This document shows positions 6,257 to 46,961 of a stretch of DNA of 64,000 nucleotides, piece after piece. The stretch spans positions 61,804 through 125,803 of the forward strand of contig JAQTZL010000003.1 in assembly GCA_028687755.1 (NCBI GenBank), written 5' to 3'. Made by a program: the position numbers and the translations under genes. Every line of letters starts with the position of its first letter. The first letter of the stretch is position 1. This stretch comes from Candidatus Nanopelagicales bacterium (GTDB lineage Bacteria > Actinomycetota > Actinomycetes > S36-B12). Below the pieces are notes generated by a model. It saw only the letters and a list, made by a program, of their open reading frames with translations, did no database searches and had not been told where the DNA came from.

Positions 6257-8218
6257 GTGGACTTCAAAAGGATCATTCGCGGACCAATTTTTTGGGTAGC
6301 TCTTGCTGTTGCCTTCGTATTAGTTGGTTCAAGTTTCCTTTCAGGGGTAGGTGCACCTACCCAGGTCGACACCAGCCAGGCTGTTTCTGACATTCAAAGT
6401 GGCAAGGTTGATACCGCGACTCTGACTGATCGCGATCAGCTCCTAGAGCTCACCCTGAAAGACGGATCCAAGCTCCGCACCTCCTATGTCACTGGCCAAG
6501 GTGTGAACCTGCAGGAGTTACTCCAACTCAAGGCTGACGCTGGTCAATTGCCAGGTGGCTATAACGTGGTGGTACCAAGTGAAAATATCTTGGTCACACT
6601 GCTGTTCTCACTTCTCCCAATTGCCATCGTGGTTTTCTTGTTGTTCTTCTTCATGGGGCAAATGCAAGGTGGCGGCAACAAGGTCATGAGTTTTGGTAAA
6701 TCCAAAGCCAAACTTGTCAACAAGGACATGCCTCAAACCACGTTCGCCGACGTCGCCGGTGCTGATGAAGCAGTTGAAGAACTTGAAGAAATCAAAGACT
6801 TCCTCGCGGACCCATCGAAGTTCCATGCCGTTGGCGCCAAGATCCCCAAGGGCGTATTGCTCTACGGGCCTCCCGGCACCGGCAAGACTTTGCTCGCGCG
6901 TGCAGTCGCTGGTGAGGCTGGAGTTCCGTTCTTTTCGATTTCAGGCTCAGACTTTGTTGAAATGTTTGTAGGTGTTGGCGCAAGTCGCGTTCGCGACTTG
7001 TTCGAACAAGCCAAAGCGAATGCTCCAGCGATTATTTTTATTGACGAGATCGATGCAGTTGGTCGCCATCGCGGCGCTGGTATGGGTGGCGGGCACGATG
7101 AACGTGAACAGACACTGAACCAAATGCTGGTGGAGATGGATGGCTTTGATGTCACCGGTGGTGTCATCTTGATCGCTGCAACAAACCGTCCAGACATTTT
7201 GGATCCAGCGCTACTTCGCCCTGGCCGTTTTGATCGCCAGATTGCAGTTGATCGGCCAGATTTGCTGGGCCGCTTTGCGATTCTTGAGGTACACGCCAAG
7301 GGCAAGCCGATGGCTGATGAAGTTGACCTGATGGCAGTTGCTCGCCGTACGCCTGGTTTCACTGGAGCAGACCTGGCCAACGTTCTCAACGAAGCTGCGT
7401 TATTGACCGCACGCCTTGGGTTCGAGCGCCTTGATGATGCGGCACTTGATGAAGCTATCGATCGAGTGATGGCAGGTCCGCAAAAGCGCACTCGCATGAT
7501 GGACGATCACGAGAAGAGCATCACCGCGTATCACGAGGCAGGCCACGCACTTGTTGCTGCGGCACTTCCTGGCAATGATCCAGTGCACAAGATCACGATC
7601 ATGCCTCGTGGTCGTGCACTTGGTTACACGATGGTGTTACCTGAAGCTGACAAGTACTCAACAACTCGCAGTGAAATGCAAAACCAACTGGCGTACATGC
7701 TCGGTGGTCGCGCTGCTGAAGAGTTGATCTTCCACGATCCAACAACTGGCGCATCGAATGACATTGAGCGCGCAACCGCGCTTGCCCGCGCAATGGTGAC
7801 CCAATACGGCATGACCGAACGTCTGGGGGCAATCCGATACGGACAGCCACAAGGTGAAGTCTTCATGGGTCGCGATTTGGGTCATACGCGTGATTACTCC
7901 GAAGAAATTGCTGGAGCCATCGATGAAGAAGTGCGTACCTTTATTGAAAATGCACACCAAGAGGCCTACGACATTCTCGTAGCCAATCGCGATGTACTTG
8001 ATGCACTCGTGAAGGAACTCTTGGAAAAGGAAACGTTAGATCGCGAACAGATCGCTGCGGTCTTTGAAGCCCTTCATCTCAATGAGCCACGTCCAGCATG
8101 GACAGGTTCCGCTCGCCGCCTGCCTGATTCGCGTGGACCGATTGAGCATCCACGCCCAGCGGTGGTTGCCGAAGTTGAAACTATTGTTGTCGAAGCTACT
8201 ACCGAAGACGAGGCGTAA
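6257..8218 (+). CDS. ftsH: ATP-dependent zinc metalloprotease FtsH
   Basis: Two N-terminal TM segments, Walker A GPPGTGKT, Walker B IIFIDEID and the zinc site HEAGHA. Confidence 0.97.
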
Positions 8219-11305: not shown

Positions 11306-12421
11306 TTAGCGGTCGGCGTCGCCGACCATAAACGTGCACGATTGCAACATGGGCACTAACGCATCCATTGGAAGCCCAACAAGAGTGCTCGTCAAGCTCT
11401 GAATTGTTGCGAATGCTGGCGTACGTAATTTCAAACGCCACGGTGTTTTTTCGCCGATACTGTCGAGCAAAATCCCGATAGTTCCAAGTGGACCTTCAAT
11501 CGCGCCATAAATCGTAAGTTCTGGTGCGCGGACCACCTTAGGAAGTTGAACTGAGGTGGGTCCGTCACCTGCTGCAAGAAGCCACTGGATTGCCTCGTCC
11601 ATGATGCTCAAGCTTGCGAGTAAGTGTTCAGCAATCAACGTAAAGCGCGATGGGATATCGCCAGATCCGTGAGCTATCGGAAAACAATGAGGGACGTGTT
11701 CGTAAGCAAGATAGGGAGTTGTGATGCGTAAATCATTCGCAACCCCACTGCTCCAAGCTATCGATCCAGAAAGCCCATATTCGTGTATTTGTTCTGGAGT
11801 GATAACTCCAATGCCTTCCAACTGCGCAAAGCGATCGCCTATTTTCTGAGGTAAATCATGAAGATCCGTCTGAAGTTCCTTGATGACTGGCGAGAGTAAA
11901 TTGAGCCATTCAGGGAAGCAGGGAGTGGCAATGCCACCGATGCGCACAAACATTGGGTGAATGCGTGATCCAGTGAGTTCTTCGAGAAGCGCTAGAAAGG
12001 TTTCCCGGTGTGCCATGAGCTGGGAAAATTTTGGATCAGTCGTGCCAAGCATGATCAAACTCGCAGTTACGCGATTCATTTCGGCGAGTAACATTCGAGA
12101 CCAGGTTGCACGTTCCGGAGTCAGTATTCCCATTGCATCTTCAAGAACAAGTGCGATGGCCAGTTCTGAACTCATGGCGCTGAGCCAGTCATGGCGATTC
12201 GCCAACATCATCAGTTGTCGGTAGTCGCGGGCTTCGAAGAGTTTTTCGGCACTGCGATGAACAAAGCCGATCCGCGGATCTGCTGAAGTGATGATGGATT
12301 CGTTTGTGTGCAAGGCCAATTGCATAGCGCCTTGCCCAGTGGGATGGAGTTCCCCGAGATCAAGATGGAAATCAGCCGGCAGATTTCGCGCCGCACCTAT
12401 TGCAACTAAGACCTCGTTCAC
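11306..12421 (-). CDS. NuoD/NDUFS2 (complex I 49-kDa subunit) paralogue, orphan, outside the nuo operon
   Basis: It aligns without gaps against the NuoD in this window at both ends. Near the N-terminus, LGELHPTGQGAMQL matches [25 protein letters not shown] matches [11 protein letters not shown], and NRHDWLS matches TRMDYLA. At the C-terminus, EGPLGTIG...TPWRLKLRTPAFATIQ...MVGDADR matches EAPRGELG...[16 protein letters not shown]...VMGGVDR. The [NiFe]-hydrogenase CxxC pairs are absent. Confidence 0.8.
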   Translation of the reverse strand: MNEVLVAIGAARNLPADFHLDLGELHPTGQGAMQLALHTNESIITSADPRIGFVHRSAEKLFEARDYRQLMMLANRHDWLSAMSSELAIALVLEDAMGILTPERATWSRMLLAEMNRVTASLIMLGTTDPKFSQLMAHRETFLALLEELTGSRIHPMFVRIGGIATPCFPEWLNLLSPVIKELQTDLHDLPQKIGDRFAQLEGIGVITPEQIHEYGLSGSIAWSSGVANDLRITTPYLAYEHVPHCFPIAHGSGDIPSRFTLIAEHLLASLSIMDEAIQWLLAAGDGPTSVQLPKVVRAPELTIYGAIEGPLGTIGILLDSIGEKTPWRLKLRTPAFATIQSLTSTLVGLPMDALVPMLQSCTFMVGDADR

Positions 12422-13329
12422 GGTGTCATCTTCGCAGGTTGAGGAAATTCAATTGCATACGCAGCAATAAGCCACCAGAAATCAGGAGTAGGGCCGTCTT
12501 GAAGCATGGTGATGTGTGGTGTTCCTGATGAAGCGTCAGCAAGAGCATCGAGAGCAACATGTGCAGTGATGTTCATTTCCCCAGTCGCCTGCGGTGTAAG
12601 TGTTTGCCCAGCGCGGTAACCCGTAAGTGTGCCGCCATCCCACACTCCTCGAATTCGATCGGCCCGCATGTGCGCGTAATCAATGGCTATGGCAAAGCCT
12701 GACGAGACGAGCGCTGTGAGGTCACGCCAACAAGCATCGCGAGTTATTCCAATTTCGCACCGCATGAATGGGCGAGTAGTCGGCCACCACTTCTTTAACC
12801 ATTCATATTCTGGGCTTGTCGTATCTAAGGCCGCGCCAAGTGTGGGTGTGAAATGCGTGTGATCAGCAACCATGATGTGCGCCACTCCATCGCTACCTAC
12901 TTCTGCCATTGCGCAGGGGAGGTCATCGAGGAATTCATGTGCCACCAACACAGTGTGTCCCGCAGGAATCTGGATGATGGTTTCCCTGACATCACCCTCA
13001 ATCCAGTCGATAGCTGCCGAGAGATGTGCCGGTCGCGGTCTGACATCAAGACAGATAAGGGTCGTGCGTTCGCGCTCTGCAGGTGTAAGCAAATCTGAAA
13101 TGTGCTCCGCCAATAATCCGGTTCCAGCGCCAACATCAATGAACCTGAGAGGCCCTTGGAGCAGGGCGGTGCGCACATAGGGCAGCAGGTCGGTAGCCAA
13201 TGTGGATTGTTGAACGCTGGTGGTGAAGTGGTCATAGGGCAGGGAATGGGAGTAGAAGCCACGATCACCGGTCGCGGCCTTTGCCCAGGCCAGATCCCAA
13301 GCGAGATCTTCGGGAATTTTGGCCACCAC
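12418..13329 (-). CDS. MidA/NDUFAF7-family class I SAM-dependent methyltransferase
   Basis: Family-typical blocks appear in order: DHFTTS (DFxTSPE-like), FIDVGAGTGLLAEHI (SAM motif I), LVAHEFLDDLP (ANEFFDALP-like), AIAIDYAH (DYG-like), GTLTGYRAGQ and GEMNITAHVALDAL (DxTAHVDF-like). Its stop overlaps the GTG start of the NuoD paralogue (GTGA). Confidence 0.75.
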   Translation of the reverse strand: MVAKIPEDLAWDLAWAKAATGDRGFYSHSLPYDHFTTSVQQSTLATDLLPYVRTALLQGPLRFIDVGAGTGLLAEHISDLLTPAERERTTLICLDVRPRPAHLSAAIDWIEGDVRETIIQIPAGHTVLVAHEFLDDLPCAMAEVGSDGVAHIMVADHTHFTPTLGAALDTTSPEYEWLKKWWPTTRPFMRCEIGITRDACWRDLTALVSSGFAIAIDYAHMRADRIRGVWDGGTLTGYRAGQTLTPQATGEMNITAHVALDALADASSGTPHITMLQDGPTPDFWWLIAAYAIEFPQPAKMTP

Positions 13330-13365
13330 AGCAACGCACGGTAGCGAGCCTCTACGCTCCTACGT

Positions 13366-14253
13366 GTGATGGCTCCTCCCCGCCTCCGTGTCGGTGTCAT
13401 TGGCACCGGTCGAGCGGGTTCCGTGATTGGCGCGGCCCTGCATCGTGTTGGTCATGAAGTGGTGGCTGTTGCCGCTGTTTCTGAACTCTCACGCCTTCGA
13501 GCTCAAGCGCTTTTGCCGGGTGTCCCTATCGTTGATATTGATCAGGTGGTTGCGGCCTGTGATTTGGTGCTGGTCGCAGTTCCCGACGATGCGCTAGCTG
13601 GGTTACTCGAAGGTCTTGCTGCGAGCCAATCAGTGAAGCCAGGTCAGTTCTGGGTGCACTTGAGTGGTCGTTATGGCACTGACGTGATGGCGCCAGTAGC
13701 TGCGCTTGGGGCCCTGCCGCTAGCTATCCATCCGGTGATGTCTTTTACCGGAACAAGCATGGATCTCCAACGCCTCGAAGAGTGCCCGTTTGGAGTGACG
13801 GCGCCTGATGAATTGCGAAGTGCTGCCGAAGCGCTCGTCATTGAGATCGGCGGCGATCCCATTTGGGTGCCAGAAGAGAAGCGAGTGCTGTATCACGCAG
13901 CTTTGGCGTTCGGCTCCAATTACCTCATCACCCTGGTAGCCCAAAGTGCCGAGTTGTTGTCGCGGGCCGGCATCGAAGAACCGCGTCGTGTTCTTGCTCC
14001 ACTGTTGAGTGCGAGTTTGGATAACGCGTTGCGACTGGGCGACCAAGCATTGACCGGGCCAGTGGCGCGAGGTGACGCGGCGAGCGTCAAGGCACATCTT
14101 GCTGTGCTTACTGAGCAATCCGAGCTCGCAGGTTCAAGTTACCGAGTACTGGCCCGCGTAACTGCAGATCGAGCAGTTGATGCTGGGTTACTGTCTACAG
14201 CGCATGCAGAGGCACTCTTGGGTGTGCTGAGTGAAGAAGGGGAATCGACATGA
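13366..14253 (+). CDS. Rossmann-fold, DUF2520-type putative oxidoreductase (panC-associated)
   Basis: N-terminal GVIGTGRAGS dinucleotide-binding motif and C-terminal ...LTGPVARGD... block. ATGA-coupled to panC, the usual actinobacterial position for this family. Confidence 0.7.
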   Translation: MMAPPRLRVGVIGTGRAGSVIGAALHRVGHEVVAVAAVSELSRLRAQALLPGVPIVDIDQVVAACDLVLVAVPDDALAGLLEGLAASQSVKPGQFWVHLSGRYGTDVMAPVAALGALPLAIHPVMSFTGTSMDLQRLEECPFGVTAPDELRSAAEALVIEIGGDPIWVPEEKRVLYHAALAFGSNYLITLVAQSAELLSRAGIEEPRRVLAPLLSASLDNALRLGDQALTGPVARGDAASVKAHLAVLTEQSELAGSSYRVLARVTADRAVDAGLLSTAHAEALLGVLSEEGEST

Positions 14254-15113
14254 CCTCACTCTTGGCTTCCACTCACGCTGAACTCCTCGCAGCACGTGGC
14301 GCGTCGCATCCTGTTGCTGTTGTGATGACGATGGGTGCGCTTCACGAAGGCCACGCGTCCCTTATTCGCGAAGCGCGTGCAGTGGTTGGTCGTTCAGGAT
14401 TTGTGGTCGTCACGAATTTTGTAAACCCGACGCAGTTTGGTGCGGGTGAAGACTTTGATCGTTACCCACGAACCCTTGATCGCGACCTTGAAGTGAGCGA
14501 GCTCGCAGGTGCAGACGTGATGTACGCGCCTTCAGTTGAAGAAATGTATGGCACTGATCGTCTCGATGACCTCGGTGGTCAAGTGATGGTGGATCCAGGA
14601 AAACTCGGTGACATTCTTGATGGCGTTGCGCGCCCGGGTCATTTCAAGGGAATGCTGACCATTGTTGGCAAGCTGCTTCACCTGACCGCTCCTGATTACG
14701 CCTTCTTCGGTGAAAAGGATTTTCAGCAACTGGCACTCATTACTGCCATGGTGAAGTCCTTGCGGTTTCCCGTGAAAGTGATCGGCGTTCCTACTGTGCG
14801 CGAAGATGATGGCTTGGCTATGAGCAGTCGCAATCGTTACCTCTCAACGCAAGAACGCAAGGTCGCATCCCTTGTTCCGCGCGCAATTCAGGTTGCTGCT
14901 GAGGTTGCAGCTCATGATGGAGCGCGTGCAGGTGAGCGCGCAGGCATCGCTCTTCTTGCTGATCACCCAGAGTTTTCCCTTGATTATCTGGTCATCACGA
15001 ATCCACAACTGGGTGAAGCAGTTCCAGGGGAAGGGCGAGTGCTCATCGCAGTTCGCCTTGGAAGTACACGCCTGATCGACAACATCGCTTGTCGTGTTGG
15101 TGGATCATCGTGA
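14250..15113 (+). CDS. panC: Pantoate--beta-alanine ligase
   Basis: MGALHEGHASLI (HxGH) motif, FGEKDFQQ and AMSSRN blocks. Confidence 0.95.
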   Translation: MTSLLASTHAELLAARGASHPVAVVMTMGALHEGHASLIREARAVVGRSGFVVVTNFVNPTQFGAGEDFDRYPRTLDRDLEVSELAGADVMYAPSVEEMYGTDRLDDLGGQVMVDPGKLGDILDGVARPGHFKGMLTIVGKLLHLTAPDYAFFGEKDFQQLALITAMVKSLRFPVKVIGVPTVREDDGLAMSSRNRYLSTQERKVASLVPRAIQVAAEVAAHDGARAGERAGIALLADHPEFSLDYLVITNPQLGEAVPGEGRVLIAVRLGSTRLIDNIACRVGGSS

Positions 15114-37206: not shown

Positions 37207-37329
37207 TCGTCTGGGTTTTCACCTTCCACTTTGCTTTGGGGCGTAAGACGACTAGATTGCCGTTTCGCATTGCAAGTCGTTGGTCACCAGAGTGCTGGTG
37301 CGATGAGCAAACAGGAAGTTTGGTGTGAG

Positions 37330-37536
37330 ATGTCGACTAGCACTGACCGGTCGCTCAGCGAGGTCCGTTTTCTAACGGTGGCTGAGGTGGCTTCGCTCAT
37401 GCGTGTGTCGAAGATGACCGTGTACCGCTTGGTTCACCATGGTGAGCTCCCAGCCGTGCGCGTCGGTCGTTCATTTCGCGTCCCTGAGCAAGCAGTGCAT
37501 GACTACTTGCGCGATTCTTACGTAGAAATCGCCTAG
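37330..37536 (+). CDS. Small excisionase/MerR-type helix-turn-helix DNA-binding protein
   Basis: LTVAEVASLMRVSKMTVYRLVHHGELPAVRVGRSFRV is the Xis-family winged HTH. It sits between proC and the bS22 ORF, as in mycobacteria. ATG 37330 was chosen over the long ORF-track start at 37231. Confidence 0.8.
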   Translation: MSTSTDRSLSEVRFLTVAEVASLMRVSKMTVYRLVHHGELPAVRVGRSFRVPEQAVHDYLRDSYVEIA

Positions 37537-37648
37537 TTCCACCTGTCGACCAAGCCAGCCGCTTGGCAAAGGTTGAGCCGCGATAGGCTCAATGCTCCAA
37601 AGCACGGGTGAATTTCACCTGTCAGCAATAAACGTGAGGTTTGTATCA

Positions 37649-37747
37649 ATGGGCTCAGTGATCAAGAAGCGTCGCAAGCGGATGGCGAAGAAGAAGCATA
37701 AGAAGCTACTGCGCCGTACCCGCGTTCAGCGTCGTAACAAGAAGTAG
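37649..37747 (+). CDS. 30S ribosomal protein bS22 (32 aa), not in the supplied ORF track
   Basis: ATG...TAG encodes [32 protein letters not shown]. This is near-identical in pattern to the actinobacterial bS22 mini-protein. GAGG lies 8-11 nt upstream. Confidence 0.8.
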
Positions 37748-37757
37748 CGAATACTTC

Positions 37758-38694: not shown

Positions 38695-39597
38695 TTAGCC
38701 GTGTGATTTGCGACCGCGGCCCGCAAGCAAACCAACTGCTAAACCTGCGGCCAAGCCGCCAGCTGCTGCAATCGCTGCAGGGGAGGCAACCTTGCGAAGA
38801 TGAGCGCGGGCTCGAAAATCCTCAATTGGCCACATGTGTGTTTCTGCGTATGCGCGCAATATTGGATCTGGATTTACGCACACAGGATTGCCGACGGCGC
38901 TGAGCATTGGAATGTCATTTGTGGAATCCGAATACGCCCAACACTCACCTAGGTCAAGGCCTTCTCGTTCTGCTAGAGCGGTTACAGCTTCTGCCTTAGC
39001 CAGTCCGTGCAATGGTGCGCCGACAAGGTGCCCTGTATAGCGGCCGTCTTCGACTTCAGAAACTGTGCCAAGGGCGCCTGTGAGCCCAAGTCGCCTCGCA
39101 ATCACTTGCGCGAGTTCAATTGGAGTCGCGGTAACCAGCCACACTTGTCGACCGGCATCAAGATGTTCTTGGGCAAGTGCCAATGTTCCTGGAACGAGTT
39201 TGTCGACCATTGATTCATCGAAGATCTCTTGACCAAACGCGACGATTTCATCAACCCTGCGGCCCTTGACGAATGCGAGTGCAGATTCAGTAGCAAGTGC
39301 CATGTCATCTGGATTCTCGGTTCCGCGCAAAATGAATCGTGCTTGCGCCATCCCGAAAGCGGCGATCTCTCGAGGAGTGAAGAAACTGCGCCGAGCCATC
39401 CCGATAGCTACATGGAACAAACTTGAACCGCGCATGATCGTGTTGTCGACATCAAAGAATGCCGCTGCGCATTTTGCGTCATATTCACTCGGTAGCTGGG
39501 CTGCAGCTGCGGAGGCAAAGCCCGCAACGCGGGCACGGTCTACTGCATCAGCCATTGTTCGAGCGTAGTCTGCGTTGTGTGAGTGACCTACCGGCAA
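38695..39597 (-). CDS. HAD-IB family hydrolase (SerB-like phosphatase)
   Basis: AAFFDVDNTIMRGSS (DxDxT), VWLVTATP and AYSDSTNDIPML motifs. A C-terminal hydrophobic tail follows. Confidence 0.8.
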   Translation of the reverse strand: MPVGHSHNADYARTMADAVDRARVAGFASAAAAQLPSEYDAKCAAAFFDVDNTIMRGSSLFHVAIGMARRSFFTPREIAAFGMAQARFILRGTENPDDMALATESALAFVKGRRVDEIVAFGQEIFDESMVDKLVPGTLALAQEHLDAGRQVWLVTATPIELAQVIARRLGLTGALGTVSEVEDGRYTGHLVGAPLHGLAKAEAVTALAEREGLDLGECWAYSDSTNDIPMLSAVGNPVCVNPDPILRAYAETHMWPIEDFRARAHLRKVASPAAIAAAGGLAAGLAVGLLAGRGRKSHG

Positions 39598-39827
39598 GTC
39601 GCGTTCAACTCATTGGTAAACCCGATTGCCACCTGTGTGAAGACGCGCGTGCGGTAGTCCAGTTGGTGTGTTCGGAGTTGAATATCGGGTTTGATGAACA
39701 CTCAATCCTGGATGACCCGCAGTTGTATGACGAGTATTGGGAGCGGATCCCAGTTGTACTGGTAGATGACCGAGTTTTGGAATTTTGGCGGATCAATCCT
39801 GAGCGTTTACGAGGGGCATTGTCCTAA
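39579..39827 (+). CDS. Glutaredoxin-like small protein (DUF836 type)
   Basis: VQLIGKPDCHLCEDA (CxxC) and a thioredoxin-fold-like remainder. The start is uncertain; GTG 39579 was chosen and the ORF-track start 39459 is unlikely. Confidence 0.6.
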   Translation: MSDLPASRVQLIGKPDCHLCEDARAVVQLVCSELNIGFDEHSILDDPQLYDEYWERIPVVLVDDRVLEFWRINPERLRGALS

Positions 39828-39853
39828 TATCGGACGCAAGTGTCCGATGAACT

Positions 39854-39871
39854 TTGTGCACGAAGGCACAA
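39854..39871. promoter_or_regulatory. Candidate Rex operator upstream of rex
   Basis: TTGTGCA-CGAA-GGCACAA has a perfect 6-bp palindrome (TTGTGC/GCACAA). It matches 11 of 14 specified positions of TTGTGAA-N4-TTCACAA and lies about 105 nt before the likely rex start. Confidence 0.45.
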
Positions 39872-39976: not shown

Positions 39977-40693
39977 GTGTCCTTGTCCCGCCAACTGAGC
40001 CCTAGTCGCACGCGCGACGATGGTCGTGGGATTCCCGATGCAACAGTGGCCCGGCTGCCGGTCTACCACCGAGTTCTTCGATCATTCGCCGAAGAGGGTG
40101 TGCAGACAATTTCTTCTGATCACTTGGCACAAAGTTGCGGTGTCAGTCCAGCGAAACTTCGCAAAGACCTTTCGCACCTGGGTTCGTACGGCACCCGCGG
40201 CGTTGGGTACGACGTAGCCCTATTGAGCTATCACATCAGCCGCGAACTCGGGTTGTCACAGCCCTGGGGTGTCGTCATTGTTGGTGTTGGCAATCTGGGT
40301 CAGGCATTGGTGTCTTATCGCGGTTTTGCATCACGAGGTTTTGAAATCGTTGGCTTACTTGATTCCCATCCAGATGTTGTGGGAAAGAGAGTGGCAGCAA
40401 CTGGTGTTGATCTGGTTGTTGCTCCGATGGCGGAGCTTGAATCATTGGTGCGTGACAGTGGAGCAAGCATTGGCGTCATTGCTACGCCGGCCGAAGCCGC
40501 CCAAAAGGTTTGCGATCGACTCGTTGACGCCGGAGTGAAAAGCATTTTGAATTTTGCTCCCGCAGTTCTGGTCGTTCCTGAAGACGTAGAAATTCGCAAG
40601 GTCGACCTTGCTGTTGAACTACAAATCTTGGCCTTCCATGAACAACGAAGAGTCGATGACTCCACTCATCTTGCGAAGGTGATGAACGCATGA
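39977..40693 (+). CDS. rex: Redox-sensing transcriptional repressor Rex
   Basis: N-terminal winged helix GIPDATVARLPVYHRVL and Rossmann IVGVGNLGQALVSY. GTG 39977 was chosen by comparison with typical Rex N-termini; the ORF-track start 39854 lies inside the putative operator. Confidence 0.9.
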   Translation: MSLSRQLSPSRTRDDGRGIPDATVARLPVYHRVLRSFAEEGVQTISSDHLAQSCGVSPAKLRKDLSHLGSYGTRGVGYDVALLSYHISRELGLSQPWGVVIVGVGNLGQALVSYRGFASRGFEIVGLLDSHPDVVGKRVAATGVDLVVAPMAELESLVRDSGASIGVIATPAEAAQKVCDRLVDAGVKSILNFAPAVLVVPEDVEIRKVDLAVELQILAFHEQRRVDDSTHLAKVMNA

Positions 40694-42447
40694 CTGCGAC
40701 AACAGTGAGCACCGCAACATCAAAGGTGCCAAAACAGGTGGTGCCTCCCCAACCTGAGGCCGCCCCGAAAAAGACGTCCAATTCCGCCACTACCGCAGGA
40801 GAGCACCAAGTGACTCGTGCAGCAACCGCAACAGCAGCACCAACTGAAGAAACACCAGTTATCGCTGCTGTGATTCCCGCAAAAGCACGTAAGAAAACAA
40901 CGGCTATTGGCACTGTGGCACTCGTTGCTGCAGGTCCTGGCGACCCTGATCTGTTGACGCTGCGCGCAGTTGCGCTGATTCGCGATGCTGACATGGTGAT
41001 CGCCGATGAAATCACTGAGCCAATTGCGCGTTTACATGCGAAAGCAGACGCAGAATTTGTAGTAGCTGGAGATCACGGCAAGGCCATGGTCGATGCAGCA
41101 AAGGATGGCAGAAATGTCGTTCACCTCATTGCTGGTGACCCAATCATTGACGGCACGCTGGTCGCAGAAGCCGCATCACTTCGTAAGTCAAAGATTCCTT
41201 TTGAAATTGCTCCTGGCGTCAGTGACGTCACGGGTATCCCTGCATACGCCGGCTTTAGTTTGACCGGCGGCAAAGTCCGCCAGGTTCGCGTTGTCGACGG
41301 AACCGACCCTGAGTTGCAGTGGGCTGACCTCGCGTCCCCTGGCATCACCACGGTGTTCCTCAATGGCGCAGATCTGTGCACTGAAATTGCAGCGAATTTG
41401 ATGGCCGCGGGTGCTGATGGAAAAACCCCGATCGCGGTAACGCGTCAAGGCACCACGGTGGATCAGCGCACACTCGCGGGAACCTTGAGCGACATTGGTG
41501 CAATCGCTAAGCGCACAAAGCAGACAGGTCCTGGCGTTGTTGTTGTTGGCGAAGTTGTGTCGCAGCGCGAAAAGGCTGACTGGTTTGAAGCTAAACCACT
41601 GTTTGGCTGGCGAGTACTCATTCCGCGCACCCAAGAGCCTTCAGATTCAATTGTTGCGCTGCTGCGTCGTCACGGAGCTGTTCCTATGGAAGTTCCAACG
41701 ATTTCTGTTGAGCCACCTCGCACCCCGCAGCAGATCGATCGCGCAGTGCACGGCTTGGTTTCTGGTCGCTACGAGTGGATTGGCTTTACTTCGGTCAACG
41801 CTGTACGCGCGATCCGCGAAAAACTTGCTTCATACGGTTTGGACGCACGCTCGTTTGCTGGCCTCAAGGTTGCCGCCGTCGGTGATGCCACTGTTGCAGC
41901 ATTGATTGAGTTTGGGGTGCGCCCTGATCTGGTCCCAGAAGGCGAGCAGACCACGGCTGCACTCCTTGATGAATGGCCAGGGTACGACTCACTGATTGAT
42001 CCAATCAATCGCATTTTCTTGCCTCGCGCCGATATCGCAACTGAATCGTTGGTCGCAGGCCTCACCGAACTCGGTTGGGAAGTTGAAGACATCACGGCCT
42101 TCCGCACAGTTCGTGCAGCACCACCTCCGGCGCCTACGCGCGAAGCCATCAAGACGGGTGGATTCGATGCAGTGTTGTTTACTTCAAGCAGCACCGTGCG
42201 TAACTTGGTTGGTATTGCAGGAAAGCCACATCACACCACTGTTGTTGCTGCGATCGGTCCTCAGACCACAAAGACTGCGCAAGAACATGGTCTACGTGTA
42301 GACGTTCAAGCTGATACCAGCACGCTTATCGGCCTCGTTGAAGCTCTCGCCGCTCATGGCGAAGAGCTTCGCTTGGCTGCTCTGGAAGCCGGTGAAGGTA
42401 GCTGGCGTCCAAGTCGTCGTCGTACACCAGCTCGACGTAAGGCGTAA
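40690..42447 (+). CDS. Bifunctional uroporphyrinogen-III C-methyltransferase / uroporphyrinogen-III synthase (CobA-HemD fusion) with a T/A/P-rich N-terminal extension
   Basis: SUMT blocks VAAGPGDPDLLTLRA, HLIAGDPIIDG and APGVSDVTGIPAYAGFSLTG. The C-terminal half has the two-lobed HemD pattern (...FTSVNAVR..., ...LFTSSSTVRN...). ATGA overlap with the rex stop. Confidence 0.8.
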   Translation: MTATTVSTATSKVPKQVVPPQPEAAPKKTSNSATTAGEHQVTRAATATAAPTEETPVIAAVIPAKARKKTTAIGTVALVAAGPGDPDLLTLRAVALIRDADMVIADEITEPIARLHAKADAEFVVAGDHGKAMVDAAKDGRNVVHLIAGDPIIDGTLVAEAASLRKSKIPFEIAPGVSDVTGIPAYAGFSLTGGKVRQVRVVDGTDPELQWADLASPGITTVFLNGADLCTEIAANLMAAGADGKTPIAVTRQGTTVDQRTLAGTLSDIGAIAKRTKQTGPGVVVVGEVVSQREKADWFEAKPLFGWRVLIPRTQEPSDSIVALLRRHGAVPMEVPTISVEPPRTPQQIDRAVHGLVSGRYEWIGFTSVNAVRAIREKLASYGLDARSFAGLKVAAVGDATVAALIEFGVRPDLVPEGEQTTAALLDEWPGYDSLIDPINRIFLPRADIATESLVAGLTELGWEVEDITAFRTVRAAPPPAPTREAIKTGGFDAVLFTSSSTVRNLVGIAGKPHHTTVVAAIGPQTTKTAQEHGLRVDVQADTSTLIGLVEALAAHGEELRLAALEAGEGSWRPSRRRTPARRKA

Positions 42448-42453
42448 TTCACA

Positions 42454-43101
42454 ATGGCTACACCAAAGCGCACCGTTGTTCACTTGCTTCGCCATGGAGA
42501 AGTGCACAACCCCGAAGGCGTGCTGTACGGCCGACTTCCTGGCTACGTGTTATCAGATCTCGGCCACGAAATGGCGCAGCGTGCGGGCAATGCGCTTCGC
42601 GGACACGACATCACCGGAGTGATCTCGTCGCCAATGGAGCGGGCGCAACAAACAGCTGTGCCAGTTGCTGGTGCGCATGGATTAGAAATCGGTACTGATG
42701 CCCGTTTGATCGAAGCTGACAATATTTTTGAAGGCCAGCGGGTCAGCGTCGGCGATGGTGTTCTTAAGCAACCCCGCACGTGGAAGCATCTTTACAACCC
42801 ATTTAAACCTTCATGGGGCGAGCCGTATGACGAAGTTGCGGCACGCATGACTCAGGCAGTGCATGCTGCTCGTGATCAATTCCGCGGCGGCGAAGTGGTC
42901 CTCGTCAGTCATCAGTTGCCAATCTGGATTGCGCGACTCGCGGCAGAGTCACGCCGGTTGTGGCACGACCCGCGTAGTCGGCAATGCTCGCTTGCATCCA
43001 TCACTTCGCTGACGTATCGCGATGATGAACTTGCGGCGATTACCTATACCGAACCATCACGTGATTTATTGGATAAGGCAAGCAAGGTGGCGGGCGCCTG
43101 A
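42454..43101 (+). CDS. Histidine phosphatase (phosphoglycerate mutase) family protein
   Basis: HLLRHGEV (RHG catalytic motif) and a later VSHQ block. Confidence 0.85.
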   Translation: MATPKRTVVHLLRHGEVHNPEGVLYGRLPGYVLSDLGHEMAQRAGNALRGHDITGVISSPMERAQQTAVPVAGAHGLEIGTDARLIEADNIFEGQRVSVGDGVLKQPRTWKHLYNPFKPSWGEPYDEVAARMTQAVHAARDQFRGGEVVLVSHQLPIWIARLAAESRRLWHDPRSRQCSLASITSLTYRDDELAAITYTEPSRDLLDKASKVAGA

Positions 43102-43118: not shown

Positions 43119-43718
43119 ATGCTTATGCGTCATACACGAGTTCGTTTAAGCATTGGCGTCGCGCTGTTTGCATTGGTTGCAATGCCGATTGCTGGTTGCA
43201 GTAGTTCTCAACCTGGTTCAACTTCTGGCAGTGAGACCAACTTCGTCGCAGGTGATGGTTCTATCGAGGTAATTCCAGTAGGTCAGCGCGTTGCAGCCCC
43301 TGATTTCACCTTGCCAACCCTGGATGGCGGAAAGTTCACGCTGAGTGCGCAACGTGGCAAGGTTGTAGCAATGAATGTCTGGGCGTCATGGTGTGCTCCT
43401 TGTCGCAAAGAAGCTCCGGATCTAGAAGCGGTTTGGAAGCAATCAGATAAACGCAAGGTTGTTTTTGTTGGACTCAACACCCGCGATTCGCAAACATCTG
43501 CTGAAGGTTTTGTTCGCAACTACGGGATTACCTATCCGCAGGCGATTGATACCGACGGTCAAGTTCAATTGCTGTTCAGGAAAACCTTGCCCGCGCAAGC
43601 GATTCCATCAACGGTCATTGTTGATGCGAACGGACGAGTCGCGGCTCGAATCTTAGGAACAGCCACTGAGGCTACGTTACGAAGCGTTATCGATGATGTG
43701 CAACGAAGTTCGTCATGA
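43119..43718 (+). CDS. resA: TlpA/ResA-family thiol:disulfide oxidoreductase lipoprotein
   Basis: Lipobox IAGCSS and the thioredoxin motif WASWCAPCRKE. It is the first gene of the ccs cluster. Confidence 0.85.
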   Translation: MLMRHTRVRLSIGVALFALVAMPIAGCSSSQPGSTSGSETNFVAGDGSIEVIPVGQRVAAPDFTLPTLDGGKFTLSAQRGKVVAMNVWASWCAPCRKEAPDLEAVWKQSDKRKVVFVGLNTRDSQTSAEGFVRNYGITYPQAIDTDGQVQLLFRKTLPAQAIPSTVIVDANGRVAARILGTATEATLRSVIDDVQRSSS

Positions 43719-44458
43719 TTAGTGATGTCATTTCGCAAGGTACGTTGCTGTTTGCATTACCGCTGGCATTTGCAGCCGGCGTACTCGCTTTCCTTTCTCC
43801 TTGCGTTTTACCTCTAGCTCCTGGGTACTTGTCGTACATCACGGGTTTAACTGGCGCTGAACTTGCAGACGTAAAAGGCAACCGCGGGCGAGTGTTTCTT
43901 GGCAGTGTGCTCTTTGTTGCTGGATTCAGTGTCGTCTTTGTTTCTTACGGAGTGTTGTTTGGATCAATCGGTGCGACTTTGTTGGAATACCAAGTCACTA
44001 TCGATCGTGTGCTCGGAGTACTTGTCATCATCATGGGACTGGCCTTCATGGGATTGATACCAGGGCTCCAGCGTGAATGGCGGATGCATCGCTTGCCAAC
44101 ATGGGGAGTTGCGGGCGCGCCACTGCTTGGTCTGTTGTTTGGATTGGGCTGGTCTCCGTGTATCGGTCCAACTCTGGCAGCGGTCCAAAGTCTGGCATTT
44201 ACGGAAGCAAGTGCATTGCGTGGCGCAGTGCTTTCATTGGTCTATTGCTTGGGCCTTGGTTTGCCATTCGTGTTACTCGGTTTGCTCTTCACTCGCATGG
44301 GGCGTGCGCTGAGTTGGGTGCGCAATCACTATGAGCTTGTCATGCGCATCGGAGGAGCAATGTTGGTGATCGTTGGTGTATTGCTTGTCACTGGTTGGTG
44401 GAGTGATTTCACGATTTGGTTGCGAGTCACGCTTCCTGGATTTGAGACAGCGCTATGA
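43715..44458 (+). CDS. ccdA: Cytochrome c biogenesis thiol-reductant transporter CcdA
   Basis: Six TM helices with the two conserved Cys (FLSPCVLP and WSPCIGP). ATGA overlap. Confidence 0.9.
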   Translation: MISDVISQGTLLFALPLAFAAGVLAFLSPCVLPLAPGYLSYITGLTGAELADVKGNRGRVFLGSVLFVAGFSVVFVSYGVLFGSIGATLLEYQVTIDRVLGVLVIIMGLAFMGLIPGLQREWRMHRLPTWGVAGAPLLGLLFGLGWSPCIGPTLAAVQSLAFTEASALRGAVLSLVYCLGLGLPFVLLGLLFTRMGRALSWVRNHYELVMRIGGAMLVIVGVLLVTGWWSDFTIWLRVTLPGFETAL

Positions 44459-46014
44459 GTCAATTGCCACCACTGAGTAATACCGGGTTCTTGCGATGGA
44501 CTTGGCGTCAATTGACGAGTATGAAAACCGCGCTCGTATTGTTGTTTTTGCTTGCACTTGCCAGTGTTCCCGGTTCCATTTACCCGCAACGTGGTGTAGA
44601 TCCAATCAAAGTTCGCGATTACATCGCGAATAATCCGACATGGGGTCCAACTCTTGATCGTCTTGGATTCTTCGAGGTTTACTCGTCGCCTTGGTTTTCG
44701 GCGATCTACTTATTGCTCTTCATTTCGCTTATCGGCTGTGTCGTTCCGCGTGTAGGCGTGCACTTCCGCGCAATGCGCAGTGCGCCTCCCGCGGCTCCTC
44801 GTGTACTTGATCGATTGGCTGGCACGCGAACGCTGGCCACAGATGCGTCAGCGAGCGAGGTGTTGCACATTGCGTCCAAGGCGTTACGCAAACATAAATG
44901 GCGCGTAGTCAGCGGTCCAGCATCGTCGCCTGAGTGGGTTGCGGCTGAAAAGGGCTACTTGCGTGAAACAGGAAACCTGGTATTCCACGTTGCATTGCTC
45001 TTCGTGCTCGCTGCGATTGCGATAGGCGGATTGTTTGGTTGGAAAGGCAACGTGATAGTTCGTGAAGGGTCAAGTTTTTCTAACACCTTGACGCAGTACG
45101 ACGCATGGGGAGGCGGGCGATACACCAATGCGCAAGACCTTCCCCCATTTTCGTTCACCCTAGATAAATTCACCGTGGACTTCGAGCGCGGAGTTGCGCA
45201 GCGTGGTGCGCCACGAGCCTTTGAAGCGGATGTTTCGTACAAGACAGATCCAGCTGCTCCTCGCCAGCATGCGCTTATCGAAGTTAATGAGCCGCTCGTG
45301 ATTGGTGGGGCAAAAGTCTTCTTGGTCGGACATGGCTACGCGCCGATCGTGAAAGTCACGGATAAAAATGGAAACGAAATATTCAAAGACGCTGTGCCAT
45401 TCCTGCCACAGGACGGAATGTTTACCTCCACTGGTGTGGTGAAGATCCCGGATTCAACGCCTCAATTAGGTTTGCAAGCGCTCTTTTTGCCTACGGCGGC
45501 CCTGGATCAAATTCGGGGACCGCACTCAACCTTCCCGGGCCCTGATGATCCAGCGTTGTTCATGTCTGCTTGGAAGGGCGATCTGGGCTTAGATACGGGA
45601 AAGACACAAAGCGTCTACCGGCTCGTGACGGACAAGATGTCCAGAATTGGCCTAGAGCAACTCAAGGTTGGCGAAAGCTGGAAGCTTCCTGATGGATCCG
45701 GAACGGTCACGTTCGTAGGCTTTAAGCGGTGGGCTTCTTTCCAAATTGCTTCTGATCCGGGTAAAGAAATTGCACTCCTGTTCGTGGCTATTGCCATTCT
45801 CGGGTTATCTCTGTCACTTTTCATTCGTAGGCGACGGGTCTGGGTGAAGGTCATGACCCGTGATGGGGTTACCGTTATCCAAATCGCTGGAATCATGCGG
45901 ACGTCGACCTTTGAAGATGAAGACATCGGTGCGCTTGCAGAAGACCTCGATGTTGTTGAACAAGCACTGATTGCAGCTGATGTTGTACGGGGTAACCCGG
46001 AGGAGGAACATTGA
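44455..46014 (+). CDS. resB: Cytochrome c biogenesis protein ResB/Ccs1
   Basis: N-terminal TM pair (MKTALVLLFLLALASVPGS), a large extracytoplasmic domain and a C-terminal TM. ATGA overlap. Confidence 0.9.
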   Translation: MSQLPPLSNTGFLRWTWRQLTSMKTALVLLFLLALASVPGSIYPQRGVDPIKVRDYIANNPTWGPTLDRLGFFEVYSSPWFSAIYLLLFISLIGCVVPRVGVHFRAMRSAPPAAPRVLDRLAGTRTLATDASASEVLHIASKALRKHKWRVVSGPASSPEWVAAEKGYLRETGNLVFHVALLFVLAAIAIGGLFGWKGNVIVREGSSFSNTLTQYDAWGGGRYTNAQDLPPFSFTLDKFTVDFERGVAQRGAPRAFEADVSYKTDPAAPRQHALIEVNEPLVIGGAKVFLVGHGYAPIVKVTDKNGNEIFKDAVPFLPQDGMFTSTGVVKIPDSTPQLGLQALFLPTAALDQIRGPHSTFPGPDDPALFMSAWKGDLGLDTGKTQSVYRLVTDKMSRIGLEQLKVGESWKLPDGSGTVTFVGFKRWASFQIASDPGKEIALLFVAIAILGLSLSLFIRRRRVWVKVMTRDGVTVIQIAGIMRTSTFEDEDIGALAEDLDVVEQALIAADVVRGNPEEEH

Positions 46015-46961
46015 GTCCTGAGTCGCTCGCGCGTATGAGCAATGTCGCAATTTATTCGTCGATGCTGGCTGTGGCTTTTGCCATGTTTGCGTTTGCTGCC
46101 TCCTTCGCAGGCGGTCGTCGCAAGCCCGCCAATGTCATCGTGACTACTGAGATGAGTGCTGGCGGAACAGCAGTCATCACCAAGACTGAACTTCCTGTTG
46201 CAGAACCTGGGAGACGTGCCGCAAATATTGGCGTTTCGCTGAGTTGGCTTGCTTTTGCACTGTTGCTGACTGGTGTTGTGCTTCGCGGAGTGTGGGCAGG
46301 CCGTGCGCCTTGGGGCAACATGTACGAGTTCTCCATTACTGCAGCCCTAAGCGTGTTAGGCGTCTACCTGATCGCAAACACGCGTGTAGATCTACGCTGG
46401 CTTGGATTGTTTGTTGTTATTCCTGTGTTGCTGACCTTGGGTGTCGCGGTCACAGTTCTGTACACGGAAGCAGCTCAACTTGTTCCTGCGCTGAAGTCTT
46501 ATTGGTTGGTCATCCACGTGTTCGCTGCGATAATTTGCGCCGGCGCCTTCACGATGGCTGCGGCGACTGCTGGTTTGTCACTCGTGCGCGACCGTGCTGA
46601 GAAGCGTGGCAATGTCGAAGGCGCATTGTCTTCGCGTATTCCTGATGCCGAACGTTTACGCGCACTTACCAACAAAACGCTGGCTTTCGCCTTTCCTTTG
46701 TGGACGTTCACTGTTGTTGCTGGAGCAATTTGGGCAGAAAATGCTTGGGGTCGTTACTGGGGCTGGGATCCAAAAGAAACCTGGGCCTTCATTACTTGGG
46801 TCGTATACGCCGCTTACCTTCATGCCCGTTCAACCGCAGGATGGCGCGGCAATAAGGCATCGATCATTGCGATAGCCGGTTGGATCGCATTCTTGATGAA
46901 TTACTTCGGTGTGAACTTCTTGGCAAACAGTCTGCATTCGTATGGGGGCGTCGGTAGTTAA
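46011..46961 (+). CDS. ccsB: Cytochrome c-type biogenesis protein CcsB/ResC
   Basis: Trp-rich heme-handling motif WGRYWGWDPKETWAFITW plus conserved His residues; polytopic. Confidence 0.92.
   Translation: MSPESLARMSNVAIYSSMLAVAFAMFAFAASFAGGRRKPANVIVTTEMSAGGTAVITKTELPVAEPGRRAANIGVSLSWLAFALLLTGVVLRGVWAGRAPWGNMYEFSITAALSVLGVYLIANTRVDLRWLGLFVVIPVLLTLGVAVTVLYTEAAQLVPALKSYWLVIHVFAAIICAGAFTMAAATAGLSLVRDRAEKRGNVEGALSSRIPDAERLRALTNKTLAFAFPLWTFTVVAGAIWAENAWGRYWGWDPKETWAFITWVVYAAYLHARSTAGWRGNKASIIAIAGWIAFLMNYFGVNFLANSLHSYGGVGS

Follow-up and report, generated by a model that had tools for sequence, protein, structure and literature searches.

A rex-hem-ccs locus reduced in place to a single, highly conserved SUMT-like/HemD fusion gene in a Nanopelagicales bacterium

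We analyzed a 64-kb stretch of actinobacterial DNA (contig JAQTZL010000003.1; referred to below as the window) with a guanine-plus-cytosine (GC) content of 54%, in which the cluster of the redox-sensing repressor gene rex, the heme biosynthesis (hem) genes, and the cytochrome c maturation (ccs) genes contains only a single hem gene. This gene encodes a fusion of a domain resembling S-adenosylmethionine (SAM):uroporphyrinogen-III methyltransferase (SUMT, CobA) with uroporphyrinogen-III synthase (U3S, HemD). All genes of the locus lie on the plus strand. The product of rex (39977..40693) scores 342.9 bits with NCBIfam NF003992 (cut-off 226) and has the Pfam domains Put_DNA-bind_N and CoA_binding; its GTG start at 39977 was taken from an earlier sequence-only reading of this DNA, and the longest rex open reading frame (ORF) begins at 39854. 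The TGA stop of rex (40691-40693) overlaps the ATG (40690) of the fusion gene in gcATGAct. The fusion (40690-42447) has 585 amino acids (aa), with Pfam TP_methylase at residues 75-269 (125.9 bits) and HEM4 at residues 320-551 (201.5 bits), and a 6-nucleotide (nt) spacer (42448-42453) separates it from a histidine phosphatase gene (42454..43101; His_Phos_1, PF00300, 121.9 bits). Behind the phosphatase stand resA/tlpA (43119-43718; AhpC-TSA/Redoxin), ccdA (43715-44458; DsbD_TM), resB (44455-46014; ResB, 465 bits), and ccsB (46011-46961; Cytochrom_C_asm, 162.6 bits), and all four components of System II cytochrome c maturation are thus present and adjacent according to Pfam. Both junctions described in the sequence-only reading, the ATGA overlap (40690-40693) and the 6 nt in front of the phosphatase and the resA-ccdA-resB-ccsB genes, are borne out by the ORF map and the Pfam assignments.

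The genes hemA, hemC, hemB, and hemL are missing from their syntenic slots, and comparison with relatives shows that they were deleted in place. Two related Nanopelagicales metagenome-assembled genomes (MAGs), found through relatives of the fusion on their contigs, retain the full cluster. One of these loci, L019 (GCA_041393815.1), has the order rex-hemA-hemC-fusion-hemB-hemL-phosphatase-resA-ccdA-resB-ccsB, with all junctions overlapping or 0 to 2 nt apart; the other, L017 (GCA_038906575.1), has the same gene order, with rex and resA present only as remnants. These remnants are ORFs of 103 aa (7400-7711) and 77 aa (14631-14864) with partial similarity to rex and resA, and they could be real decay or assembly errors. 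Both full loci share the flanking genes of the reduced loci (acyltransferase, haloacid dehalogenase [HAD] hydrolase, acyl-CoA ligase, Glrx-like), and in both the histidine phosphatase gene directly follows hemL. Since the intact loci lie between the same flanks, exactly four genes were excised in the window. HemA, HemC, HemB, and HemL of L017 gave no tblastn match (E ≤ 1e-3) in the six frames of the 64-kb window, and no pseudogene remnants of the four genes are left in its locus. Family scans of about 50 window ORFs revealed no other tetrapyrrole gene, hemE, hemY, cpfC, and chdC not having been searched for by tblastn. The absence of four tetrapyrrole genes from their expected slots, as claimed in the sequence-only reading, is therefore confirmed by the L019 and L017 loci and by the tblastn search.

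The reduced form was found in 16 of the 19 fetched loci, those listed being L001 to L016 and L018. L001 to L003 represent one strain or closely related ones; of these, L001 and L002 cover the segment from rex to the ccs genes, and the short L003 covers only that from the fusion onward. The four L017 proteins gave no tblastn match at E ≤ 1e-3 in L001 to L016. L018, which like L019 was fetched after this search, has no hem genes in its called-gene list and no match to HemA, HemC, HemB, and HemL of L019. The reduced locus occurs in the window's own species and in relatives of 54, 60, 64, 66, 68, 70 to 72, and 73% GC; the contigs that carry it include one of 1.08 Mb, one of 1.15 Mb, and a closed one of 3.46 Mb. 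It is old and widespread. Its presence in relatives of up to 3.46 Mb and 73% GC indicates a loss that does not depend on genome streamlining, and the locus is not an oddity of a streamlined genome. In a neighbor-joining tree of the fusion, which carries no support values, a complete-locus entry (P0302) stands beside the large reduced clade holding the window, and a reduced lineage (P0121) stands beside a complete-locus group (P0278), apart from the window's clade. This placement suggests that the four genes were probably lost at least twice independently, with the fusion spared each time.

The locus shrank in several steps. The window and L005 are without two genes of the higher-GC relatives L010, L012, L013, and L016, namely, an NAD-epimerase gene between a 32-aa ORF and the acyltransferase gene (window 37207-37757) and an AMP-binding acyl-CoA ligase gene between the HAD and Glrx-like genes (window 39597-39830). 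In L014 (GCA_054605155.1, 10001-12766) rex, the fusion, and the phosphatase are kept, the resA-ccdA-resB-ccsB slot is empty, and PLDc_N, DUF4229, and men genes follow directly.

The HemD half of the fusion (aa 304-556; 41599..42357) matches HEM4 (PF02602) at 201.5 bits against a cut-off of 27.5 and spans profile positions 2-231 of 231. It is 78% identical to the HemD half of L019, and the whole protein is 64 to 65% identical to the L017 and L019 fusions, which sit between hemC and hemB and thereby identify it as an orthologue of the cluster HemD; the retained gene is an ordinary actinobacterial HemD. No segment of the locus is more conserved than this half, and the same applies in prototrophic relatives. 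Compared with relatives of 60 to 73% GC it is 85 to 86% identical, the corresponding values being 77 to 80% for MenB, 73 to 76% for CcdA, 73 to 76% for Rex, 63 to 73% for CcsB, 58 to 62% for the methylase half, and at most 35% for the N-terminal extension. Among 121 sequences spanning 54 to 73% GC, 172 of 253 positions are invariant in the HemD half and 79 of 231 in the methylase half. Between L019 and L017 the HemD half is 83% identical, HemL 72%, HemB 69%, HemA 58%, and HemC 56%. U3S is normally the least conserved heme enzyme. The synonymous distance (dS) is saturated even against the 92%-identical L003, and the nonsynonymous distance (dN) of the HemD half (0.03 to 0.10) is the lowest of 10 neighboring genes, with a dN/dS of 0.015 versus L003. 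Saturation of dS also rules out a constraint at the DNA level, such as an antisense gene, as the cause of the conservation.

When the reduced clade was compared with the presumed complete group, itself inferred from two sampled loci only, 205 positions were conserved alike and 12 were fixed differently, mostly conservatively. The same constraint in intact and reduced loci indicates that it predates the pathway loss and did not relax afterward. It is highly improbable that the fusion is a stranded relic not yet lost, an intermediate toward the state of the acI lineage (Nanopelagicaceae), in which the fusion is gone (common-module score of 0 in the survey discussed below). The window lineage has also lost the epimerase and ligase genes from the locus, as such ongoing erosion would have it; however, the saturated dS, the low dN and dN/dS of the HemD half, and its 172 invariant positions contradict decay, and the fusion gene is intact in every reduced locus sampled. 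Such strong purifying selection indicates that the fusion is not a decaying relic.

One position within this conserved half departs from the enzyme. F471 (window 42100-42102) aligns with the catalytic tyrosine of U3S, an equivalence taken from a phmmer alignment to 3re1 (LPLYRR) that is itself weak. We take this tyrosine, Tyr168, to be the U3S residue with the clearest catalytic effect. The position is phenylalanine in the window and in the 12 closest cluster representatives, and tyrosine in 107 of 120 clade members and in L017 and L019. Loss of the tyrosine does not track loss of the pathway, since phenylalanine occurs only in the window's sub-clade and most reduced-locus lineages have tyrosine.

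The SUMT-like half (aa 73-303; 40906..41598; TP_methylase, PF00590, 125.9 bits) aligns with CysG, NirE, and CobA and is predicted to share their class III methylase fold. It keeps the SAM motif GPGD (residues 82-85), of the GxGxGD type, and D106, the equivalent of CysG D248; the SAM-binding motifs are invariant within the clade. The best Foldseek match was NirE (2ybq, TM score of 0.78), with 2ybq, 1pjq, and 1s4d all at E values of about 1e-20; the top 50 matches were to methylases only, with none for the HemD half. The catalytic and substrate residues of SUMT are not retained. NirE K102, R111, E114, and R149 (CysG K300, R309, E312, and R347) correspond to I147, T156, A159, and a gap or G193 in the window protein. 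In NirE, K102A abolishes activity, R111K removes 94% of it, and E114Q removes 84% (PMC4731766). Among representatives of 50%-identity clusters, canonical fusions of about 500 to 515 aa keep K, R, E, and R in 49 to 50 of 50 cases, whereas 58 actinobacterial-type proteins have hydrophobic or variable residues at these positions. Scores with the NCBIfam SUMT models lie under their cut-offs (TIGR01469, 141.1 versus 185; NF004790, 153.5 versus 198; NF007922, 155.7 versus 400). Judged from its residues, the SUMT-like half is probably a pseudo-enzyme domain, and the loss of the same residues across the actinobacterial-type set makes the degenerate methylase a trait of the whole type, prototrophs included. 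Mycobacterium tuberculosis has a separate cysG. The CobA half of what the sequence-only reading called a uroporphyrinogen-III-processing enzyme is thus not a credible SUMT, having isoleucine, threonine, alanine, and a gap or glycine at the K/R/E/R positions, although GPGD and D106 are kept.

Both ends of the fusion carry tails. The N-terminal extension (aa 1-72; 40690..40905) is 64% T+A+P+K and predicted to be disordered, with a predicted local distance difference test score below 50 for residues 1-67. Conservation within the protein is weakest here (33 to 61% identity; dN/dS of 0.09 to 0.33), and relatives have anywhere from 16 to 113 residues ahead of the GPGD motif, often in Lys/Ala/Pro repeats. 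Short N termini occur in L014 and L018, which have the reduced locus, and in L017 and L019, which have the complete one. Tails of this kind, variable and disordered, are common in the clade, and the extension is not linked to the gene loss. The T/A/P/K-rich composition noted by the sequence-only reading stands, but the length is about 72 to 80 aa and not about 85, and the feature is not unusual, being common in the clade and absent from some reduced-locus members. In the high-GC loci L012 (10001-10340), L013, and L016, the extension consists of 100 to 113 aa of Lys/Ala/Pro repeats (AKKAAPAKK-like), and the N termini of some homologues are marked PF07382 (histone H1-like HC2) in precomputed Pfam annotation. 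An origin of the extension as a remnant of hemA or hemC was rejected: tblastn searches for the extensions in the hemA-hemC regions of L019 and L017 yielded only scattered low-complexity matches, spread over all frames, and L014 and L018 are reduced yet have short N termini. At the other end, the end of the C-terminal helix and a basic tail (aa 557-585, ending in SWRPSRRRTPARRKA; 42358..42447) are 72 to 100% identical in relatives. The basic tail (SWRPSRRRxxARRKA) is kept in all relatives, including the prototroph-type L017 and L019, and residues 578-585 are predicted to be disordered.

The fusion protein matches freshwater MAGs at 80 to 99% identity, several of them labelled Candidatus Nanopelagicales bacterium. 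By GC content, habitat, and NCBI labels, the window organism is probably a non-acI member of the Nanopelagicales in family S36-B12, and possibly in genus UBA4592. Kim et al. scored 25 heme KEGG Orthology groups (KOs) in GTDB genomes (preprint with supplementary KO table, 10.1101/2021.01.11.426183). Three UBA4592 MAGs (85 to 94% complete, about 2 Mb, GC of 53.5 to 54.2%) have module scores of COMMON=0.33, SIRO=0.17, CPH=0, PPH of 0 to 0.25, and C5 of 0 to 0.5, and the same signature, with PPH at most 0.25, is given for the S36-B12 genomes IN43 and RS404 and for UBA10649 (68% GC), Baikal-G3, ATZT02, UBA5976, and AcAMD-2 (10.1101/2021.01.11.426183). COMMON=0.33 with SIRO=0.17 is what a lone cobA-hemD KO would give. 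In the same source NP52, NAT138, and UBA10799 are nearly complete in the heme modules, acI proper (Nanopelagicaceae) has COMMON=0, two acI strains were shown experimentally to need hemin, and the lone hemD is not commented on (10.1101/2021.01.11.426183). An estuary preprint on S36-B12 makes no mention of heme. HemC is absent from the window and the locus, and the published table suggests its absence in the family. Heme auxotrophy is already documented for the order and is visible in the published table for the candidate genus, and the retained ccs genes indicate that heme is still needed. From this table and the locus, the window organism is likely a heme auxotroph, and of the two alternatives left by the sequence-only reading, auxotrophy or relocated genes, the S36-B12 scores, UBA4592 included, favor the former.

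It is unlikely that heme is still made, with hemA, hemL, hemB, hemC, and the terminal genes moved elsewhere and the fusion acting as a normal U3S. Such a relocation would agree with the very strong purifying selection on the HemD half and with its conserved positions, which are those of full-cluster relatives, and the search of this genome for hem genes covered the 64-kb window only. Within S36-B12, moreover, few or no steps of the upper and common modules are missing from NP52 and UBA11398 (10.1101/2021.01.11.426183), and Nanopelagicales HemB proteins exist (P0444). Against this, more than 10 non-acI Nanopelagicales MAGs from different studies, three of them the UBA4592 MAGs of 85 to 94% completeness, show one third of the common module and no coproporphyrin branch, and the window's sub-clade has F and not Y at the position aligned to the catalytic tyrosine of U3S.

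In-place deletion, heme auxotrophy, and retention of the fusion for a second function together form the explanation that we favor and regard as reasonably probable. The ancestor would have had a single Rex-controlled cluster, rex-hemA-hemC-(SUMT-like/HemD fusion)-hemB-hemL-phosphatase-resA-ccdA-resB-ccsB, from which two deletions would have removed hemA and hemC upstream of the fusion and hemB and hemL downstream of it, with gene boundaries staying tight. The organism would no longer make heme and, like its acI relatives, would import it for the respiratory chain and cytochrome c maturation. The N-terminal methylase-like domain was already without SUMT catalytic residues in the whole actinobacterial type, and the HemD fusion would have a second function independent of heme synthesis and older than the pathway loss. 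Candidates would be tetrapyrrole binding or handling, or a protein-protein role; this function would keep the fusion gene, which would still be expressed with rex. Whereas the gene order, the in-place deletion, the degenerate SUMT residues, and the strength of selection are read directly from the sequences, the auxotrophy of this genome and the existence and nature of a second function are inferred from comparative data: a second function most simply reconciles a constraint tighter than that on any genuine hem enzyme with genomes in which the published tables show no supply of the substrate. The "other role" proposed for the retained enzyme in the sequence-only reading fits the very strong purifying selection. 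We suggest only tentatively that the actinobacterial HemD fusion as such (pseudo-SUMT, HemD, and basic C-terminal tail; orthologue of Rv0511) serves a further purpose that is under strong selection and has nothing to do with making uroporphyrinogen III. With the same reserve, these Nanopelagicales might serve as natural experiments in which the rest of the pathway was removed at least two times and the second function was exposed.

A different account of the unrelaxed constraint, in which HemD still acts as U3S or on a related tetrapyrrole and is fed by a nonhomologous route or an imported precursor, seems quite improbable to us. The HemD-half constraint unchanged after loss of hemA, hemB, hemC, and hemL and the invariant SAM-binding motifs of the methylase-like domain would suit it, and heme pathways still to be recognized were called possible by Kim et al. 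(10.1101/2021.01.11.426183). However, no candidate genes stand beside the fusion in any of the 19 loci. We know of no alternative to HemB or HemC, and hydroxymethylbilane is unstable, which makes its import implausible.

Several observations weigh against a second function combined with auxotrophy. The acI lineage proper lost the fusion altogether (COMMON=0), and that family can thus do without any second function. The ccs genes are missing in L014 and rex is missing in L008, L015, and L018, yet all four loci have the fusion, indicating that neither neighbor explains its retention; ties of the fusion to rex or to the ccs genes are ruled out on the same grounds. Unchanged constraint on HemD would also be expected if some source of hydroxymethylbilane remained and the cell still depended on U3S activity, and the complete group of the constraint comparison rests on the two sampled loci. 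The absence of hemA, hemC, hemB, and hemL applies to the window and the reduced loci, and, though this is unlikely, hem genes may lie elsewhere in the genome. A homologue search with HemB of L017 returned, among its best 120 matches, a flat and uninformative list at 69 to 75% identity, mostly from Micromonosporaceae. Finally, the tie of the window to UBA4592 and S36-B12 consists of GC content, habitat, and NCBI labels, and the tree that suggests repeated loss carries no support values.

Upstream of rex, a palindrome resembling a Rex operator, TTGTGCACGAAGGCACAA (39854..39871), lies about 105 nt before the rex start. We take it to fit the Rex operator (ROP) consensus of Streptomyces. It is the sole match to TTGTGN8CACAA in the 64 kb (0.19 expected; at least one match in 17 of 100 shuffles) and is found at the equivalent place in L001, L002, and L004 to L007, with no exact match in more distant loci. 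A Rex protein scoring above its cut-off and a predicted TTGTGAA-N4-TTCACAA-type operator upstream are the features of a Rex-regulated operon. The upstream neighbor of rex, kept at the same position in relatives, is a Glrx-like gene (39597..39827; PF05768, 56.8 bits, residues 48-121 of the ORF 39459-39827), the start of which is uncertain because the longest ORF, from 39459, would overlap the HAD gene. Farther upstream are proC and genes for a deacetylase, a helix-turn-helix protein, a 32-aa basic ORF, an acyltransferase, and the HAD hydrolase; downstream of ccsB are menA/E/B/C/D/F/G and nuoB. The very basic 32-aa ORF (37649-37747, plus strand) has a counterpart of equal length among the called genes of every relative, in the same position, and presumably resembles the actinobacterial small ribosomal protein bS22. 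The first 27 kb of the window contain pst, ftsH, fol, pan, nad, and lysS genes. Between folK and panC, the group at 11306-14253 includes an orphan NuoD-like gene far from the real nuo operon (371 aa; Complex1_49kDa, 126.9 bits; far under the NCBIfam NuoD cut-offs), an adjoining Methyltransf_28 gene on the minus strand (12418-13329), and then a divergent Rossmann-like/DUF2520 gene (13366-14253).

Abundant freshwater Actinobacteria were already known to include heme auxotrophs, and the gene loss in itself is therefore only a small addition. What the window adds is the mode of the loss, by excision in place from one rex-hem-ccs cluster, and its reach, which takes in relatives with large GC-rich genomes. 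Also new are the CobA half without SUMT catalytic and substrate residues, which is true of the whole actinobacterial type, and the HemD half as the most conserved protein segment of the locus in lineages that, by the published tables, are without the other steps. The point of interest is that a pseudo-SUMT/HemD fusion is best conserved where the rest of the pathway has been discarded. If a second role is real, it would bear on the annotation of thousands of actinobacterial "bifunctional CobA/HemD" genes, on the scoring of pathway completeness, in which K13542 adds spurious hemD and SUMT steps, and on the reading of the essential mycobacterial HemD.

Comparison with known systems places the locus among the actinobacterial hem/ccs clusters. 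In M. tuberculosis, Rv0509-Rv0512 are hemA-hemC-hemD-hemB and Rv0524-Rv0529 are hemL-phosphatase-thioredoxin-ccdA-resB-ccsA, and Streptomyces has rex-hemACD; these gene orders follow in part a published table (PMC8192938). These clusters have the same genes in the same order, L019 joining both M. tuberculosis blocks in one cluster, and for hemD of M. tuberculosis and Mycobacterium smegmatis (Rv0511, MSMEG_0954), too, the annotation describes a methyltransferase/synthase fusion. The window resembles them in having Rex at the head of the cluster with an operator-like palindrome upstream and differs in the absence of hemA, hemC, hemB, and hemL, the fusion abutting rex and the phosphatase gene. 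Canonical CobA/HemD proteins (SUMT plus U3S, about 500 to 515 aa), which occur, for example, in Firmicutes and sulfate reducers, have the same TP_methylase-then-HEM4 order and are 36 to 42% identical to the window protein, but in them the HemD and methylase halves are conserved to a like degree, each being about 38% identical to the window.

A precedent for a noncatalytic HemD fold is NnaR, an actinobacterial regulator for whose N-terminal HemD-fold domain a lack of U3S activity has been reported and a heme-like ligand proposed (PMC6277429). NnaR has a DNA-binding output domain and the window protein has none; the latter is an orthologue of the housekeeping HemD and not of NnaR, scoring only 43 bits with the NnaR-type model PRK07239 (cut-off 273). 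Another close parallel to the window lineage is acI (Nanopelagicaceae, Kim et al. 2021), which belongs to the same order, lives in freshwater, and lacks the heme pathway while keeping respiration and heme proteins. The two differ in that same-locus relatives of the window reach 3.46 Mb and 73% GC, and in that acI lost hemD too (COMMON=0), whereas the window lineage keeps a hyper-conserved HemD fusion.

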